DNA of 64,000 bases from Gammaproteobacteria bacterium. Its GTDB lineage: Bacteria; Pseudomonadota; Gammaproteobacteria; SURF-13. The notes under the pieces were generated by a model that saw only the letters and a list, made by a program, of their open reading frames with translations, did not search any database and had not been told where the DNA came from. Shown piece by piece: positions 1,833 through 57,704 of this stretch. The stretch lies in NCBI GenBank assembly GCA_003599485.1, contig QZKM01000018.1, positions 278-64,277 of the forward strand, in the 5' to 3' direction. The translations under genes and the position numbers were made by a program. The first letter of the stretch is position 1. The number at the start of each line of letters is the position of its first letter.

Positions 1833-3755
<1,923 letters not shown>

Positions 3756-12494: not shown

Positions 12495-14174
12495 TTATCG
12501 AAGCATAACAAACAGCAACAGCAAATTTAGGATCAGTGACACAATAAACAGCGCTTTCCAGTGTTGAGGGCGGATGCGCTCAAGCAAAGGCGCTTTGCGT
12601 TGCGGGTGGCTGGTTGGCGGAGGACTGCTCAGCGCCGCGGCAAAATCTGCGGCGTGGGGGTAGCGTTGGCTTGGGTCGGGGGCGCAGGCCTGGCGCAGGA
12701 TTTCGGACAGCCAGTGCGGCACGTCGGGGTTGTAGCGCTCAGGCGGGATGAAGCGGCTGTAGGAAGGATGGGTGAAGGGTTCGATTTCACCATAGGGGTA
12801 TTTTCCGGTGAGCATCTCGTATATCGTCACCGCCGCGGAGTAGACGTCTGCACGCTCATCGGCCTCTCCGCCCGCCATCACCTCGGGCGCAATGTAGCTC
12901 GGCGTGCCGACGGGCGTGAGCGATTGACTGCCCGCGTCCATGCGCTCGATGCGGCTTACTCCGAGATCGAGCAGGCGCACCCGGTGTTCGGCGTCTATCA
13001 GAATATTTTCCGGTTTCACGTCGCGGTGGATCACGCCCTTGCGATGCAGATGGTCGAGGCCGGTTAGGATCTGCTGCGCCAGCGACAGCGTTTCGTGCAC
13101 GGACAGTCCGCTTTTCCGTTTGATGCGCGCGGCCAGAGTCTCGCCGTGGTGGAACACCATCACCGTGTAGAGCGCGCTGCGCCGTCCCGGGGTAAGCATG
13201 ATGGTCTTTACCACGTGCGGGCTGTCCAGGCGCCGGCCCAGCCATTCCTCGCGCAGAAAATAACTCACGAACGCGGCGTCATCGGCGTAACGCGGGTTGG
13301 GAAATTTTAGCGCCACGCGCTGGCCGGTTTCACTGTCCACCGCGGCATACAAGGTGGACAAACGTCCGCTGTGCAGGCGCTCGCCGATGACGAAGCCGTC
13401 CACCGTGTCGCCCGGTTTCGGCAGCGCACGGATGGGCAGCGCGGTGATGCTGAGACTGATATCGGATGCGGTCTCGGGCGGGAGCTTTTCCACGCGCGCC
13501 ACGCACGCGCTGACGTTATCCATGCTGCCCGCCTTGAGCGCTTGCAGCACCAGAGTCTCGGCAATGTCCTGCGCGCCGTGATTTTCCCGGGCAAGCACCT
13601 CGGTTATTGTCTGGACATCCAGCGTTTCGTGCACGCCGTCGCTGGTGATGAGAAACACGTCGCCTTCCTGCAGTTCCCCGCTTTGCACGTCGGCGTTGAG
13701 TTGTACATCCAACCCGCACGCGCGCGTAATCATGGAACCGATGTGCGCGTAGGGACGGCTGTGATCGGTGGTGACCTGCGTGAGCAGCCGGTTGCGGTAC
13801 AACCAGACGCGCGTGTCGCCCACGTGGCCGACGGCCCAGCGGCGATTGCGCAGCACCAGGGCGGAGAGCGTGGTGGCCCGGCCCGCTGGCGGTTCGGCCA
13901 GCACGGCGCGGTTGGCAGCAATGAAGCAATCCCTGAGCGTGTGCTCCAGGGTCAGGGTTTCGGGAGCGGCGTAGTATTCATCGCGCAAGGTGCGAATCGC
14001 GCACTCGGCGGCCTCTTTCCCTCCCGCCATGCCGCCCACGCCGTCGGCCACGGCGAACAGCGCGCCGTAGTCGAGATATTGGCCCGTGCTCGGCGTGATG
14101 ACGAGACAACTGTCTTCATTGGCCTTGCGTTTCCCCCCTTGCGACGAGCAACCGGCATCCAGAGTCAAGCTCAT
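12495..14174 (-). CDS. Fused PP2C-type Ser/Thr phosphatase (N-terminal) and Ser/Thr protein kinase (C-terminal) with a C-terminal transmembrane helix; last gene of the nitrate assimilation operon
   Basis: PP2C motifs KRKANEDS, AVADGVGG, GDTR, TSDGV and DN in residues ~1-235. Kinase motifs VALK, HRDVKPENIL, DLG and GTPSYIAPE in residues ~260-520. Hydrophobic tail ALFIVSLILNLLLLFVML. Only 6 nt separate its start from the upstream transporter stop. Confidence 0.85.
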   Translation of the reverse strand: MSLTLDAGCSSQGGKRKANEDSCLVITPSTGQYLDYGALFAVADGVGGMAGGKEAAECAIRTLRDEYYAAPETLTLEHTLRDCFIAANRAVLAEPPAGRATTLSALVLRNRRWAVGHVGDTRVWLYRNRLLTQVTTDHSRPYAHIGSMITRACGLDVQLNADVQSGELQEGDVFLITSDGVHETLDVQTITEVLARENHGAQDIAETLVLQALKAGSMDNVSACVARVEKLPPETASDISLSITALPIRALPKPGDTVDGFVIGERLHSGRLSTLYAAVDSETGQRVALKFPNPRYADDAAFVSYFLREEWLGRRLDSPHVVKTIMLTPGRRSALYTVMVFHHGETLAARIKRKSGLSVHETLSLAQQILTGLDHLHRKGVIHRDVKPENILIDAEHRVRLLDLGVSRIERMDAGSQSLTPVGTPSYIAPEVMAGGEADERADVYSAAVTIYEMLTGKYPYGEIEPFTHPSYSRFIPPERYNPDVPHWLSEILRQACAPDPSQRYPHAADFAAALSSPPPTSHPQRKAPLLERIRPQHWKALFIVSLILNLLLLFVMLR

Positions 14175-51288: not shown

Positions 51289-52160
51289 CACGGATGGCTC
51301 CCCACGATTACTTCCGGGACAAAATAGCGCAGCCCGGCTCCTTGCTGTACTACAGCCTGCTGTACACCCCGCAAGCAGGGCGCGACGCCCTCATCGCACT
51401 GCATACCCTGCGTCACGAATTGCTCGATGTGCTGGACAAATGCAGCGACGCTTCGGTGGCGCGCATGAAGTTGAACTGGTGGCGCGAGGAGCTGCATCGC
51501 CTGTTTCAGAACCAGGCCCGCCATCCCTTGACCCAGGCACTGCTCCCGCTCACCCAACGCTACACTCTTCCACTTGAGCATTTCCTGGAGATTGTGGACG
51601 GCGTGCAGATGGGACTGGACGTCACCCGCTACTCGTCTTGCAATGAACTGCTGCTCTACTGCCACCGGGTAAGCAGCATGGTGACGCTGATGAGCGTGGA
51701 GATTCTGGGATACACGGAACGCGCCACGCTCAAATTCGCCCATGAGTTAGGCGTGGCGCTGCAACTGACGCGTTTTATACTGAACCTGCGCCACGACTCG
51801 CGGCGCGGACGGATTTTTATACCGCTTGATGAAATGAACCGCTTCGGTGTGAACGTCAACGACCTGAAAGAAGCCGCGCCCGGCGGCAAGCTGAAGGAGC
51901 TGTTAAGGCTTCAGGCGCAGCGCGTGCGTGAATACCACGCCAAGGCGTTGGCTCAACTCCCCGCAGTGGACCGTTACCGCCAGCTTCCTCTGCTCACCGA
52001 GGCCTGGCTCCATCTGGCCTTGCTGGACAAGCTTGAGGACAGGGACTACTGGCTGCCGGAACAACCTCTGACACTCGCGCCGTTACGCCAACTCTGGATC
52101 GCCTGGCGCACCCTGCGCCGCGAGAAGGGCATGCGCAAATCCGCGACTCAAGGCGCCTGA
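51285..52160 (+). CDS. Squalene/phytoene synthase family protein (head-to-head isoprenoid synthase, HpnD/CrtB-like)
   Basis: Family-typical sequence (YCHRVSSMV...RFI.LDE). Confidence 0.6.
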   Translation: MTRMAPHDYFRDKIAQPGSLLYYSLLYTPQAGRDALIALHTLRHELLDVLDKCSDASVARMKLNWWREELHRLFQNQARHPLTQALLPLTQRYTLPLEHFLEIVDGVQMGLDVTRYSSCNELLLYCHRVSSMVTLMSVEILGYTERATLKFAHELGVALQLTRFILNLRHDSRRGRIFIPLDEMNRFGVNVNDLKEAAPGGKLKELLRLQAQRVREYHAKALAQLPAVDRYRQLPLLTEAWLHLALLDKLEDRDYWLPEQPLTLAPLRQLWIAWRTLRREKGMRKSATQGA

Positions 52161-53185
52161 CCGGTGCGCGCGAGGTAATCCCTCAAATTTTCCGGCTTGT
52201 AGCCCGAGAGGTTTTTGTAGCGCCGCAGCGCATCGGGATGGACTTTTTCTCCGGTGTTTTCACCCGCCCCAATGGGGCGATGATGACTGGGTGTGAGCTT
52301 GTAGAGCCCCGTCCTGGAGTCGCGCAACTCGCCGTCCCATCCGGGATGGATGTTTTCCCTGACGTAGTCCTCGTCAAAGGCAAGCCCCGCGCCTTGCGCC
52401 TTTTCCTTCATCCACATGAAGGTGATGTCGGAAAGGCCACTGTCTTCATAGCCGCCGCCGACGTTGGTATGCACACCGGCGAACCACACCTGCTCCAGTT
52501 TTTGACCCGCCGCGTGCGGCTGCTGCTGCCAGATGCTCGGCGCAAACGGCGCGCGCTTCTCGTCTATCGCCAGTGCCTGATAAGCGTGATCCACGTAACT
52601 GCTCAGCTTCACGTCGTGGAATTCCAGTCCTATCAGCCTGTTCGCATAACGCATCCCGCGCAGCGGAATGCCCAACGCGCCCACGGTGTCCCACACGCCG
52701 ATGCATTTAATACGCACCTCGTGCGCGTACATCCTGCGGAATATCTGCGCTTCCACCGAATTCGGATTGGACTGGTCATCCCGGCGGCGATACAAGGCAT
52801 AAGCCTGCTGGAATTTATCCGCGTGTTCCTTTTTCAGCAACCCGCAGTTGCGCATCAGACCGGCGGTGCTTCTCGCGGTATAAGCGCCGCGGCTGAAACC
52901 GAACAGATAAATCTCGTCGTCCGGCTCATAGTTTTCCACCAGAAACCGGTACGCATCCTCGATATTTTCTGACAAGCCGGCGCCAAAGGCCCCGCCCCTC
53001 ACGCGATCCCACCAATGCGTGCCCACCCCCTTGTCGTAGAAAACCCGTTGCTCCATTCCGCGCGCATCCTGACGCGCCACCGCCAGCGCCATCTTCGCCA
53101 CGTTACTCGGCCTGATCTGACCCCGGTCTTTCTGGTCAGGCGTATTCCATGTGCCGTCGGAACAGATGACGATGCGTTTAGGCAT
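52148..53185 (-). CDS. DUF2235 alpha/beta-hydrolase (T6SS Tle1-like phospholipase catalytic domain), standalone
   Basis: Starts IVICSDGTWN. Nucleophile elbow GFSRGA (GxSxG). Only ~345 aa, with no Tle1 C-terminal extension. Confidence 0.65.
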   Translation of the reverse strand: MPKRIVICSDGTWNTPDQKDRGQIRPSNVAKMALAVARQDARGMEQRVFYDKGVGTHWWDRVRGGAFGAGLSENIEDAYRFLVENYEPDDEIYLFGFSRGAYTARSTAGLMRNCGLLKKEHADKFQQAYALYRRRDDQSNPNSVEAQIFRRMYAHEVRIKCIGVWDTVGALGIPLRGMRYANRLIGLEFHDVKLSSYVDHAYQALAIDEKRAPFAPSIWQQQPHAAGQKLEQVWFAGVHTNVGGGYEDSGLSDITFMWMKEKAQGAGLAFDEDYVRENIHPGWDGELRDSRTGLYKLTPSHHRPIGAGENTGEKVHPDALRRYKNLSGYKPENLRDYLARTGQAP

Positions 53186-54425: not shown

Positions 54426-54725
54426 TCAGGTATGACCGGCTTCGGCATGCAACTTGAGTCCCAGAGCCCCGATGACTTTGAGGATGGTATCGAAACCGGG
54501 GCTGCGCTCGCCGGAAAGAGCTTTGTAAAGGCTCTCACGGGATAGGCCGGCATCGCGCGCAACCTGCGCCATGCCCTTCGCACGGGCAATGTCGCCTAGT
54601 GCTTTAGCAATGAAAGCGGCGTCTCCGTTTGCCTCTTCGAAGCAAGCTTCGAGGTAGGCGGCCATTTCCTCAGGGGTTCTGAGGTGTTCGGCAACGTCAT
54701 AGCGAGTGGTAGCAGTTTTGGCCAT
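54426..54725 (-). CDS. Addiction-module antidote protein, HigA family (HTH antitoxin)
   Basis: 99 aa. Sequence typical of the putative addiction module antidote family (EEMAAYLEACFEEANGD...IAKALGDIARAKGM...LYKALS). Confidence 0.8.
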   Translation of the reverse strand: MAKTATTRYDVAEHLRTPEEMAAYLEACFEEANGDAAFIAKALGDIARAKGMAQVARDAGLSRESLYKALSGERSPGFDTILKVIGALGLKLHAEAGHT

Positions 54726-54730
54726 AGTGA

Positions 54731-55027
54731 TTACTCCGAAAGGTTGCGGGCGAGGCGCAAGGCAGTCTTGATGTCCTTGGCTTGGGTGCTCTTATCACCG
54801 CCGGCCAGGAGAATGATTGCTTCTCGCCCTCGCTTTCTGAAATAGACCCTGTACCCAGGGCCGTAGTTGATTCGCAACTCCGATATGCCTTCGCCAACCG
54901 GCTCTACATCACCAGGGTTTCCGCCAGCGAGGCGCTCGATCCTGGCCTGAACACGCGCTCTGGCTTGGTTGTCACGTAGGTCATCGAGCCATTTAGCAAA
55001 GACGCCGGTCTTGCGAATTTCGACCAT
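54731..55027 (-). CDS. Addiction-module killer protein, RelE/ParE superfamily (HigB-like), encoded upstream of its antitoxin
   Basis: 98 aa. Toxin-first arrangement with a 5-nt gap to the antidote gene. Confidence 0.8.
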   Translation of the reverse strand: MVEIRKTGVFAKWLDDLRDNQARARVQARIERLAGGNPGDVEPVGEGISELRINYGPGYRVYFRKRGREAIILLAGGDKSTQAKDIKTALRLARNLSE

Positions 55028-55133: not shown

Positions 55134-55565
55134 TCATGTCTTGCGCTGGTCTCGTATCAGGCTGCGTAGTTTGTTCATCAGGTATCCTCCCAACCACAGC
55201 ATGGCCTCCCACACCTGCACCGTCACCAGGCCGATGAGAAAGGAGTGCACAAATGCGGTTTCGATCACCTTGTCCGCGCCGAGCAAGGCCAGCGCGGGTG
55301 AACCGGCCCAGGGGATGGTGGAGGCGAGCACCTTGCGTATCAGGGGCTTTCCCTTGAAGGCGTGATAGCCGAGCGGGGCCATCGCCAGGGGAGCGATCAG
55401 TAAATGCAAGCCGCCCGCGAGATGGACTACATAGGCGTACAGCGCCGCCAGGATCAGGAGCGCTACCCAGTTGCGCAAATAATAGGAGCGCACGCCGATT
55501 CCCGCGCCGGAATCAACGCCGCCAACCAGCGATAAAGCCGCTTGTTTTGTCTTATTTTCCGACAA
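55134..55565 (-). CDS. Small integral membrane protein, no recognisable family, no heme-binding motif
   Basis: Two or three predicted TM helices. Same strand as fccB and directly downstream of it. The annotated TTG start overlaps the small ORF, so the true start is uncertain. Confidence 0.5.
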   Translation of the reverse strand: MSENKTKQAALSLVGGVDSGAGIGVRSYYLRNWVALLILAALYAYVVHLAGGLHLLIAPLAMAPLGYHAFKGKPLIRKVLASTIPWAGSPALALLGADKVIETAFVHSFLIGLVTVQVWEAMLWLGGYLMNKLRSLIRDQRKT

Positions 55566-55635
55566 ACAGCGAGGTGAGCCATGCCACGATGACGATCGCC
55601 GCCGCCAAACTCAACATCACAAAGGTGAAGTCCAT
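55552..55635 (-). CDS. 27-codon single-TM micro-ORF (MDFTFVMLSLAAAIVIVAWLTSLFVGK), 3 nt downstream of the fccB stop
   Basis: ATG is preceded by the Shine-Dalgarno GGAGAGGG at 8-nt spacing. The peptide is a uniformly hydrophobic helix. Confidence 0.4.
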   Translation of the reverse strand: MDFTFVMLSLAAAIVIVAWLTSLFVGK

Positions 55636-55638
55636 GAT

Positions 55639-56985
55639 TTATCCCTCTCCAAACAAATCGCCGTACAGGGCCTTGGCCCAATCCAGTGTCGCCGCGCCTT
55701 TGGCGGCGTCGCGCTTTTCATCCGTGCCGGTGCTTTCCTTGGCGGGGCTGAAGGCCTTGGCGGTGGTGTCGTAGCTGAAGCTCACCCACATGCTGATCGC
55801 CTCCTGCGGGGCGGTGTTCACCATGGAATAACACAGGCTGGCGGGGCTGGTCCAATCAATCGTCTTGCCCGCCGCGTGCGCGGCAATGACCTTGGCTACG
55901 TATTTTCCTTCGCTGTTGGCGAGGTGCGCGCTCTTGGGGAAGCCCATCGGACGGCTGTCGCCGGTCACGTACACGCGCGAATCGCCCGGCACGTGATATT
56001 TCCGCACGTCTATGCGCGCCTCTTTTTGCGGACTCTTGGCGTCAACCAGGCCCGCCACTTCGATCAATTTCGAGGCGCGCACGCCGGGATAGATCGCGGC
56101 CTCGTCAAAATCATACGAGTCAAACTCGGTGCGGATGGTTTTTGCGTCCGCGTCCACGCCGGTGATGTTCACCGACGGAACGTATTCGACGTAGTCCTTG
56201 TACAGCTCGTTAAACGCGGCGTGGAAGCCGTCCTTTTTCACCGCGATGTCGGGGTTGTTGTCCAGCACCAGCACCTTGCCCTTGATTTTGTGCTTCTTGA
56301 AGTAAGACGCAATCATGCAGGTGCGCTCATATGGCGCGGGCTTGCAGCGGAAGTTGCCGCCGGGGACGGTTTGTATGAAAACCCCGCCCTTGAAGTTTTC
56401 AATCTTGCGCTTGATGGAAACATGCTCCGCGCCCGTCATCCAGCCAGCGGGATATCCGGTGCGCAAACGGTATTCGGTGTCCGGGTCGTTCACGCCGATA
56501 CGCGCGTAGTCGTAATCTATGCCGGGCGCGAGCACCAGATAGTCGTAGGCGATTTCGCCCTGATCGGTGTGCACCTTGCGCCCGGCGCGGTCCACGCCGG
56601 TGCAGGTGGCGTTGAAAAAGACGTAGCCGCCGCGCTTCGCGGCGTCCAGGAAGCTGTGCCCGGCGAGAAATTCCAGGTCAATGACATCGGCATACCACAG
56701 ATTGCTGGAAAAACACGAGCTGTACATGGCGCGCTTTTCCACCAGCACCACGTCAAAACCCGGATTTTCAATCTTGAGATATTTGGCGATGGTAAGGCCG
56801 GACGTGCCTCCGCCCACCACCACCACGCGCGGGCCCCTGGCCTTGGGCAGATAGGCCTTCTTCCCCGTGCTGACGCCCTTGGGCGCGGCCTGCGCCAGAC
56901 CGGGCAGTCCGCCCGACGCGCCCGCGGCCAACGCGGCGCCGGAAAGTTTGATAAAACCACGCCGGGACAATTTGTTTTTGCTCAT
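55639..56985 (-). CDS. fccB: Sulfide dehydrogenase (flavocytochrome c) flavoprotein subunit FccB/SoxF-like, Tat-exported
   Basis: Twin-arginine motif SRRGFIKLSGAALAAG. FAD-binding VVVVGGGTSG. FccB-type pyridine nucleotide-disulfide oxidoreductase. Confidence 0.85.
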   Translation of the reverse strand: MSKNKLSRRGFIKLSGAALAAGASGGLPGLAQAAPKGVSTGKKAYLPKARGPRVVVVGGGTSGLTIAKYLKIENPGFDVVLVEKRAMYSSCFSSNLWYADVIDLEFLAGHSFLDAAKRGGYVFFNATCTGVDRAGRKVHTDQGEIAYDYLVLAPGIDYDYARIGVNDPDTEYRLRTGYPAGWMTGAEHVSIKRKIENFKGGVFIQTVPGGNFRCKPAPYERTCMIASYFKKHKIKGKVLVLDNNPDIAVKKDGFHAAFNELYKDYVEYVPSVNITGVDADAKTIRTEFDSYDFDEAAIYPGVRASKLIEVAGLVDAKSPQKEARIDVRKYHVPGDSRVYVTGDSRPMGFPKSAHLANSEGKYVAKVIAAHAAGKTIDWTSPASLCYSMVNTAPQEAISMWVSFSYDTTAKAFSPAKESTGTDEKRDAAKGAATLDWAKALYGDLFGEG

Positions 56986-57056
56986 CAGGCAACTCCCTCA
57001 ATCAAGGCGGTGGAGAAAGATGAAATGGTAAGTGCAAGCCGTCCGTTAATCAATCA

Positions 57057-57704
57057 TTATTGCACGCGTGCGGGACAGATTTCACCCAGGCAGCATAACG
57101 CGCAGCGTGGACGCGGGCGGCAGATTTCCTTGGCGTGGCGCACGATGAGCGCGTGAAACTCGTTGAATAACCTGATTTTTCCCTTGCCGCGCCAGCCTTT
57201 TTCAAACAGGGCGCGCAGCGTTTCATAATCCTCGTCGCCGCGCACGTGACCCAGGCGGCTGTGCAGGCGGCGGGTGTAGGCGTCTATCACAAACACCGGG
57301 CGTTCGAAGGCGTACAGCAGAATGTCGTCCGCGGTCTCCGGCCCGATGCCGTTCACCGCCAGCAGCCGCCTGCGCAACACCGGCGTGGCGAGCCGCGCCA
57401 GCGCCTCGTGCCCGCCTTGCGCGAGATACCAGGCGCAGAAATTGCGCAGGCGTTTGGCCTTGATGTTGAAATAGCCGGAGGGCTGGAGCAGGCGCGCGAG
57501 GCGCGCGTGCGGCAGGCGCGTGATGACCTTCGGATCAAGCGCTTGGGCCCGTTTGAGATTGGCGATGGCCTTTTCGACGTTGCTCCACGCGGTGTTCTGC
57601 GTGAGCACCGCGCCCGCCATGACTTCAAACGCCGTCTCGCCCGGCCACCAGTGTTGCGGGCCATAGTGGCGGTAAAGCGTGCGGTATACCTTGGTGAAGC
57701 TCAC
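57057..57704 (-). CDS. Endonuclease III-related HhH-GPD protein with C-terminal 4Fe-4S cluster loop
   Basis: HhH-GPD motif (LLAVNGIGPETADDILL) and the cysteine cluster CRPRPRCALCCLGEIC. Confidence 0.75.
   Translation of the reverse strand: MSFTKVYRTLYRHYGPQHWWPGETAFEVMAGAVLTQNTAWSNVEKAIANLKRAQALDPKVITRLPHARLARLLQPSGYFNIKAKRLRNFCAWYLAQGGHEALARLATPVLRRRLLAVNGIGPETADDILLYAFERPVFVIDAYTRRLHSRLGHVRGDEDYETLRALFEKGWRGKGKIRLFNEFHALIVRHAKEICRPRPRCALCCLGEICPARVQ

Follow-up and report, generated by a model that had tools for sequence, protein, structure and literature searches.

The flavoprotein gene and its surroundings

The DNA analysed here, hereafter the window, is a 64-kb stretch of contig QZKM01000018.1 from a Gammaproteobacteria bacterium. 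On its minus strand it carries a gene for a flavoprotein of the FccB type, the subunit that binds flavin in flavocytochrome c sulfide dehydrogenase (FCSD), followed by a very short open reading frame (the micro-ORF) and by an open reading frame (ORF) for a polytopic membrane protein. All three are present as a first-pass annotation of this DNA had described them, and the following features have been assigned to the locus:

55639..56985, minus strand: FccB-type flavoprotein gene, 448 aa (ORF calling, domains, structure matches)
55552..55635, minus strand: 27-codon micro-ORF MDFTFVMLSLAAAIVIVAWLTSLFVGK, predicted single-pass membrane peptide (ORF calling and conservation)
55134..55565, minus strand: 143-aa polytopic membrane protein with a TTG start, overlapping the end of the micro-ORF by 14 nt (ORF calling)
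55643..55650, minus strand: Shine-Dalgarno motif GGAGAGGG of the micro-ORF, within the final flavoprotein codons and 7 nt before the ATG
56884..56985, minus strand: part of the flavoprotein that holds its twin-arginine signal peptide, roughly residues 1-34 (TIGR01409; PF10518 weak)
57056..57085, minus strand: promoter-like, TG-extended site of the form GTGAAA-18-AATAAT, located where the upstream HhH-GPD gene ends (consensus match only)

The flavoprotein gene and the micro-ORF meet at GGA GAG GGA TAA ATC ATG, where the ATG lies 3 nt past the TAA; at 55636-55641 the start of the micro-ORF shares the frame of the flavoprotein stop and is one codon apart from it (TAA ATC ATG). A scan of the window detected no terminator-like sites between the flavoprotein gene, the micro-ORF, and the 143-aa ORF. 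The site at 57056..57085 is a possible promoter of this fccB-like unit, judging from its match to the consensus.

The flavoprotein had been described as FccB/SoxF-like and exported by the twin-arginine translocation (Tat) pathway, and domain models and structure matches bear this out. With 89.4 bits, the Pfam model PF21706 (FCSD_central) is far above its cut-off, which is 27. For PF09242, the flavin-binding domain at the C-terminus of FCSD, residues 382-445 align with profile positions 6-71 of 71 at 23.8 bits, just short of the 26 required; most homologues of the flavoprotein carry a precomputed match to this domain. The NCBIfam Tat signal model TIGR01409 matched residues 6-33 with 22.2 bits (cut-off 16.7); the Tat motif is SRRGFIK, with likely cleavage after AQA. 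The closest solved structures are the FccB chains 3vrd_B (E=4.5e-44), 1fcd_A (5.1e-41), and 5n1t_A (7.9e-41), and the alignments cover residues 51-420, i.e., the whole mature protein. Cys91 aligns with the FAD-linking Cys42 of 1FCD, and Cys214 and Cys385 align with its redox pair Cys161/Cys337. The three cysteines are invariant in 20 diverse homologues. The catalytic machinery of an FccB/SoxF-type enzyme is hence intact, and a corresponding activity may be expected. By full-length homology, cysteines, and Tat signal, the protein is an FccB/SoxF-type FCSD flavoprotein subunit.

An identity as sulfide:quinone oxidoreductase (SQR) was considered and rejected. SQR structures match only residues 53-244, the N-terminal FAD fold, with E-values of about 1e-8 to 1e-9, the NCBIfam model SQR_III reaches 53.5 bits against a cut-off of 525, and the flavoprotein ends where canonical FccB ends.

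An FccAB holoenzyme would be recognized by an adjacent c-type cytochrome gene with CxxCH motifs. At this locus the flavoprotein gene is flanked by an HhH-GPD glycosylase gene on its upstream side and by the micro-ORF on its downstream side. When the six reading frames of the 64 kb were searched for CxxCH motifs, only a DnaJ-sized ORF and a 57-aa ORF came up, and no c-type cytochrome gene; the window likewise contains no Rieske homologue. No fccA- or soxE-like cytochrome gene thus lies next to the flavoprotein gene or elsewhere in the window, and the arrangement departs, as had been proposed in the first-pass annotation, from the textbook fccAB by lacking a cytochrome gene and having a conserved micro-ORF instead. 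Placement of fccA directly upstream, the scenario that had been named as a refutation, can be discarded for this window: the upstream genes on the same strand encode the HhH-GPD glycosylase, RluB, ScpB, ScpA, and tryptophanyl-tRNA synthetase (TrpRS), and the order TrpRS-ScpA-ScpB-RluB-HhH-GPD-fccB is syntenic across the window's lineage. The remainder of the window is of a housekeeping nature (HrcA, RecN, nitrate/nitrite assimilation, MoeA, ferrochelatase, S1, aroA, gyrA).

Conservation and evolution of the micro-ORF

The comparative material comprised 80 genomic loci encoding relatives of the flavoprotein (numbered L001 onwards) and further metagenome contigs; identities given below for loci are those of the flavoprotein. 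For the micro-ORF, 10 independent loci with at least 71% identity and flanking DNA were compared, the window included. All 10 (the window, L001, L002, L003, L082, L084, L090, L091, L093, and L094) encode a homologue of 27-29 aa directly downstream of fccB on the same strand. The conservation downstream of fccB that had been put forward as a check on the micro-ORF is therefore present, and it is tied to this fccB clade. One of these copies, L094, was the single further one returned when the metagenome contigs were scanned from the peptide side with a degenerate DNA pattern, and it again lies beside fccB. In nine loci the micro-ORF begins 2-21 nt after the fccB stop, in the tenth the distance is 115 nt, and GGAG, GAGG, or AAGG stands at Shine-Dalgarno distance in every copy, either inside fccB or after it.

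A 27-codon ORF is by itself unremarkable, as this 10 kb contains 150 ORFs of at least 20 aa; the micro-ORF stands above chance because it is conserved. Pairwise DNA differences at codon positions 1/2/3 amount to 291/140/478, and the median dN/dS is 0.24 in frame versus 2.58 in frame +2, while frame +1 has stops. Peptide identity falls to 33-41%, with length, hydrophobicity, an acidic N-terminus, and a basic C-terminus retained. M1, D2, T4, M7, A18, S22, and G26 are invariant, and the mean Kyte-Doolittle hydropathy over residues 3-25 is 2.37. From the terminal charges and the positive-inside rule, the peptide would be oriented with its N-terminus out and its C-terminus in. No Pfam family matched the peptide, and in NCBIfam only two sub-threshold, chance-level matches were obtained (E=0.05 and 0.19), hence similarity to a described family is lacking in these two collections. 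The micro-ORF had been called unannotated. This holds for the ENA and NCBI gene calls examined, which omit it, but not for the JGI calls on the same contig, which list a 27-aa gene, nor for one Logan assembly, in which a 29-aa homologue is called. Altogether, the micro-ORF is very probably a genuine gene.

Two ways of reading the micro-ORF as part of a larger gene were rejected. Stop-codon read-through yielding a tail-anchored flavoprotein does not agree with the frames, as only 4 of the 10 loci have the micro-ORF in the fccB frame, and a C-terminal helix extension occurs in none of the 120 best flavoprotein homologues. A single frameshifted gene made of the micro-ORF and the 143-aa ORF is contradicted by relatives in which a DUF167 gene or a gap separates the two.

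In more distant loci the micro-ORF is missing. It was not found in the relatives of 64-70% identity (L086, L088, L097, and L099), and none of the 40 fetched loci with at most 63% identity has it. In L086, fccB is abutted convergently by ChrA; in L097, it is overlapped by a gene which we take, from its translation alone, to be PPK2-like; L099 has the same upstream synteny as the window and yet lacks the micro-ORF. In a bootstrapped neighbour-joining tree, all loci with at least 68% identity form one clade (94.5%). Two supported subclades were resolved within it (86.5% and 99% bootstrap), each consisting of peptide-bearing loci and a basal peptide-less locus, and the peptide tree tracks that of the flavoprotein. 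As both subclades carry the peptide, it probably predates their split and has been lost at least twice, where ChrA (L086) or the PPK2-like gene (L097) now abuts fccB. The peptide-less relatives retain fccB, and therefore the enzyme can persist without the peptide.

The conserved unit is fccB with the micro-ORF: in the window no terminator separates the three ORFs, and in L091, L082, L003, and L094 a hairpin or terminator comes after the micro-ORF. The hairpin has been located directly 3' of the micro-ORF at L091:3546-3575, L082:4360-4395, and L003:5460-5495. In L091, GTCAGGGCATGCCCTGAC and, behind it, TCTTTTTT make up a good intrinsic terminator. L082, L003, and L094 share a conserved stem, CAGGGTGTGC...GCACACCCT, 3' of the micro-ORF, of which the window has no equivalent. 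As a separate observation, L091 contains at 3670-3700 an approximately 30-nt copy of the start region of the micro-ORF (ggataacgATGGATTTTGCATTTATCATC), inserted in frame within the DUF167 gene; the insertion adds GITMDFAFI relative to the L082 and L003 versions.

Partners of FccB-like flavoproteins

Different partner genes are found beside the FccB-like gene across the family. In 26 of the 43 loci with at least 45% identity, a Tat-signal Rieske-type protein of about 232 aa is encoded directly downstream (L030:4001-6076; also L004-L025, L042, L033, L034, and L041). This protein has a C-x-H...C-x-x-H motif, matches the Rieske family in Pfam, and is annotated as a Rieske (2Fe-2S) protein or as an arsenite oxidase small subunit. 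The Rieske-paired loci correspond to a sister clade of 51-63% identity, including Thiobacillus, Gallionellaceae, Comamonas badia, Rhodanobacter thiooxydans, Hydrogenophilales, and others, together with three Campylobacterales. The arrangement resembles a flavoprotein-Rieske pair, not a flavocytochrome. The classical fccA-fccB order was recognized in three loci of 47-50% identity from Sedimenticola, a Solemya symbiont, and Poriferihabitaceae, in which the ORF upstream codes for 232-257 aa and contains two CxxCH motifs (L027:1730-2503, L028:1312-2046, L029:3288-3986). In three Campylobacterales loci, the downstream gene product has 196 aa, a membrane helix at its N-terminus, and a DUF302 domain (L035:5356-5946, L040:5366-5956, L043:5364-5954). 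Partners have thus been exchanged within the flavoprotein family; the branch to which the window belongs encodes a micro-peptide and lacks an adjacent redox partner.

Compared with the FccAB enzymes of Allochromatium vinosum (1FCD), Thermochromatium tepidum (3VRD), and Thioalkalivibrio (5N1T), the window flavoprotein shares the FCSD central domain, the FAD cysteine, the redox pair, and the Tat signal, while its match to the C-terminal domain stays just under the cut-off. It differs in that no dihaem FccA gene is found adjacent or in the window, and in its only moderate identity to the solved enzymes. Canonical fccAB operons are not known to include a 27-aa membrane peptide. The sister clade, the closest large homologue group, in which some Sulfurimonas are also found, has the same catalytic residues and also a same-strand gene directly downstream; its partner is a soluble iron-sulfur protein, whereas the window has the micro-ORF instead.

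SoxF-type flavoproteins, such as SoxF of Paracoccus pantotrophus, work without a tightly bound cytochrome subunit. In Thioalkalivibrio, the copy numbers of fccB and fccA are not always equal (PMC6382920). The window gene is comparable to SoxF and to these orphan fccB copies in that no cognate cytochrome gene adjoins the FccB homologue; unlike soxF, it sits amid housekeeping genes and not in a sox cluster. We know of no small membrane peptide reported for SoxF-type or orphan FccB proteins. Literature searches for an FccB-Rieske pair, or for a small membrane peptide partner of a sulfide dehydrogenase, returned no paper describing either. The window locus is a cytochrome-less one of the FccB type with a conserved micro-protein, and the FccB-Rieske pairing is widespread in the sister clade.

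These arrangements may have consequences for annotation. Metagenome surveys routinely count FccB-type genes as "fccAB sulfide oxidation". The window locus and its relatives show that the cytochrome subunit is missing from a large branch of this family, which pairs instead with a Rieske protein, with a 27-residue peptide, or with nothing. The electron routing and the energy yield read from fccAB annotations may be wrong for such organisms. The micro-ORF itself adds a well-supported conserved bacterial micro-protein that most gene callers miss, and a concrete candidate for tiny membrane peptides serving soluble periplasmic redox enzymes.

In several relatives, a gene for a 212-aa 1-Cys peroxiredoxin (AhpC-TSA and 1-cysPrx_C domains) lies immediately upstream of the FccB-like gene (L003:3323-3961, L082:2025-2663, L086:4312-4950, L097:1718-2356); the window does not have it.

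Possible roles of the peptide and of the 143-aa protein

The flavoprotein would be exported by the Tat pathway with covalently bound FAD and would oxidize sulfide or sulfane sulfur in the periplasm. As no dedicated redox partner gene lies beside it, its electrons would most probably pass to a soluble periplasmic acceptor encoded elsewhere, e.g., a cytochrome c or a HiPIP-type (high-potential iron-sulfur protein) carrier. The peptide would be translated from the fccB mRNA through its own Shine-Dalgarno site, would span the inner membrane once, and has been passed on with this clade of flavoproteins while subject to purifying selection. As it has no cofactor-binding capacity, a part as electron carrier is unlikely. 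By analogy with bacterial micro-subunits, its most likely role is that of a small accessory membrane subunit, holding or stabilizing the enzyme, or its membrane partner, at the membrane surface; a conserved small-residue face (T4, A11, A18, S22, and G26) would suit helix-helix packing. The chances appear about even that the locus encodes such a partner-less FccB-type enzyme with a small membrane peptide serving the flavoprotein.

Small single-helix accessory subunits are known from cytochrome bd (CydX), cbb3 oxidase (CcoQ), and the periplasmic nitrate reductase (NapE). Like these, the window peptide has fewer than 50 residues and one hydrophobic transmembrane helix, and belongs to a class of genes that lie in the enzyme's operon and often go unannotated; here the gene starts 3 nt behind fccB with no terminator between, in a position kept in 10 loci. 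The differences are that the peptide shows no sequence similarity to any family described in Pfam or NCBIfam, that its link with the enzyme is derived from gene order, and that the enzyme is a soluble periplasmic flavoprotein and not an integral membrane complex. A more specific proposal is that the peptide is a dedicated micro-subunit of an FccB-type sulfide dehydrogenase without cytochrome, and would fasten this Tat-exported flavoprotein to the inner membrane, perhaps near a membrane acceptor, as one outcome of a wider, so far undescribed partner swapping among dihaem cytochrome c, Tat-Rieske protein, membrane-anchored DUF302 protein, and micro-peptide. This is speculative and rather unlikely.

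Several observations weigh against a role in the service of the flavoprotein. The relatives L086, L088, L097, and L099 keep the enzyme without the micro-ORF, and one of the four also shares the window's upstream synteny. The N-out/C-in orientation would leave about 4-5 residues in the periplasm, which offers little surface to bind a soluble flavoprotein. Furthermore, a fusion of flavoprotein and helix was seen in none of the 120 best homologues.

The alternative that best survives is that the micro-ORF encodes a genuine small membrane protein whose function is unrelated to the flavoprotein, e.g., a stress or regulatory peptide of the YohP type, and which is carried along by transcript and synteny. 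YohP is a free-standing micro-protein of 27 aa (PMC7549839), and regulatory single-helix proteins of such size are common (PMC7549839, PMC12648545). As the whole neighbourhood from TrpRS to fccB is syntenic, co-inheritance alone is weak evidence for a functional bond, and relatives without the peptide retain the enzyme. Yet the peptide always follows fccB directly, though the genes further downstream differ: L002 has a 339-aa polytopic (10-TM, i.e., ten transmembrane segments) membrane protein beyond the peptide, L084 a nucleotidyl (NTP)-transferase and a ferrochelatase, and L090 a DUF167 gene. Moreover, where the peptide is absent, another gene abuts fccB, namely ChrA in L086 and the PPK2-like gene in L097, and the single further copy found from the peptide side again adjoins fccB. 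A function unrelated to the flavoprotein is doubtful on this balance.

According to the first-pass annotation, the 143-aa protein might replace the cytochrome and pass electrons to quinone. In this form, the peptide and the 143-aa protein would constitute a membrane module anchoring the flavoprotein and sending its electrons to the membrane or to quinone in place of the cytochrome c subunit. The gene layout offers some encouragement: the three window ORFs are contiguous, overlapping, and free of terminators; in L090, fccB, micro-ORF, DUF167 gene, and 143-aa homologue are tightly packed; and every close member of the 143-aa family with examined context lies downstream of this fccB clade, within about 0.6 kb. 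The protein itself does not. It has no Pfam or NCBIfam domain and no CxxCH motif, and of its histidines H107 alone is conserved across the wider family, which excludes a bis-His haem site. The conserved His pairs or recognized anchor domain expected of a haem-b/quinone anchor are thus missing, and because only H107 is conserved, nothing points to haem b or quinone chemistry. The AlphaFold model has a pLDDT (predicted local distance difference test) of 59, too low for a fold comparison.

The 143-aa family is very small, with 21 proteins in 5.8 billion clusters and 18 matches to a family profile in 1.84 billion representatives. Its distribution also argues against such a module. A homologue was not found in the fetched downstream flanks of L001 (about 1.1 kb), L002 (about 4 kb), or L084 (5 kb), which retain fccB and the peptide. 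In L003, L082, L090, L091, and L094, a DUF167/YggU-like gene stands between the micro-ORF and the 143-aa homologue. The start of the 143-aa gene is overlapped or directly adjoined by the called DUF167 gene in L090, L091, and L094, which suggests translational coupling to DUF167 and not to the micro-ORF, and in L091, L082, L003, and L094 the 143-aa gene lies behind the hairpin or terminator. Two remote relatives of about 115 aa adjoin a helix-turn-helix (HTH) regulator and DUF2059, respectively, in unrelated contexts and not beside redox genes. In the window and in L093, the 143-aa gene is contiguous with the micro-ORF because DUF167 is absent there, and in the window the hairpin is absent as well. 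That the 143-aa ORF could be an unrelated, separately transcribed gene had been named as a possible objection to the original proposal; this is half borne out by the relatives, with their intervening DUF167 gene and, in four of them, a hairpin or terminator, but not by the window, where the ORFs are contiguous and terminator-free. The membrane module is accordingly improbable, and the 143-aa protein is best described as a lineage-specific frequent neighbour that is not demonstrably part of the enzyme.

It has also to be asked whether the micro-ORF is a functionless leftover, either the signal-anchor end of the Rieske gene of the sister clade or a detached C-terminal helix. Its position coincides with the start of the Rieske gene in that clade, in either case an initial MD leads into a hydrophobic stretch, and its repeated loss was not accompanied by loss of fccB. 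Against this, purifying selection acts in its own frame, and start codon and Shine-Dalgarno site have been kept over about 30% flavoprotein divergence. The peptide profile matches no Rieske N-terminus in the 26 Rieske-carrying loci, no twin-arginine motif is left in the peptide, and fused forms do not occur among the 120 best homologues. A leftover is hence decidedly improbable. Finally, that the micro-ORF is a chance ORF in DNA conserved for another purpose, e.g., a 3' structure of the transcript, is hardly credible: short ORFs are plentiful in GC-rich DNA and most gene callers passed over this one, but its substitutions are biased to third positions with the low dN/dS given above, peptide length, hydrophobicity, and terminal charges are retained at 33-41% identity, and an Rfam scan of the region returned no match.

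Some further observations concern the surroundings of the 143-aa gene and the rest of the window. A promoter-like site stronger than that of the fccB-like unit, TTGACA-17-TACAGT, lies at 55062-55034, just 3' of the 143-aa ORF and ahead of a toxin-antitoxin pair. This pair, right after the 143-aa gene (54426-55027, minus strand), consists of a 98-aa toxin resembling Gp49/HigB and a 99-aa HTH antitoxin of the HI1420 type; L090 likewise has an antitoxin-type gene downstream of its 143-aa homologue. At 52148-53185 (minus strand), a 345-aa protein with a Tle1-like catalytic domain of the type VI secretion system (T6SS; PF09994, from the precomputed gene table) is encoded alone amid housekeeping genes. 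At 12495-14174 (minus strand), a single ORF of 559 aa has a PP2C phosphatase domain at its N-terminus and a Ser/Thr protein kinase domain at its C-terminus.

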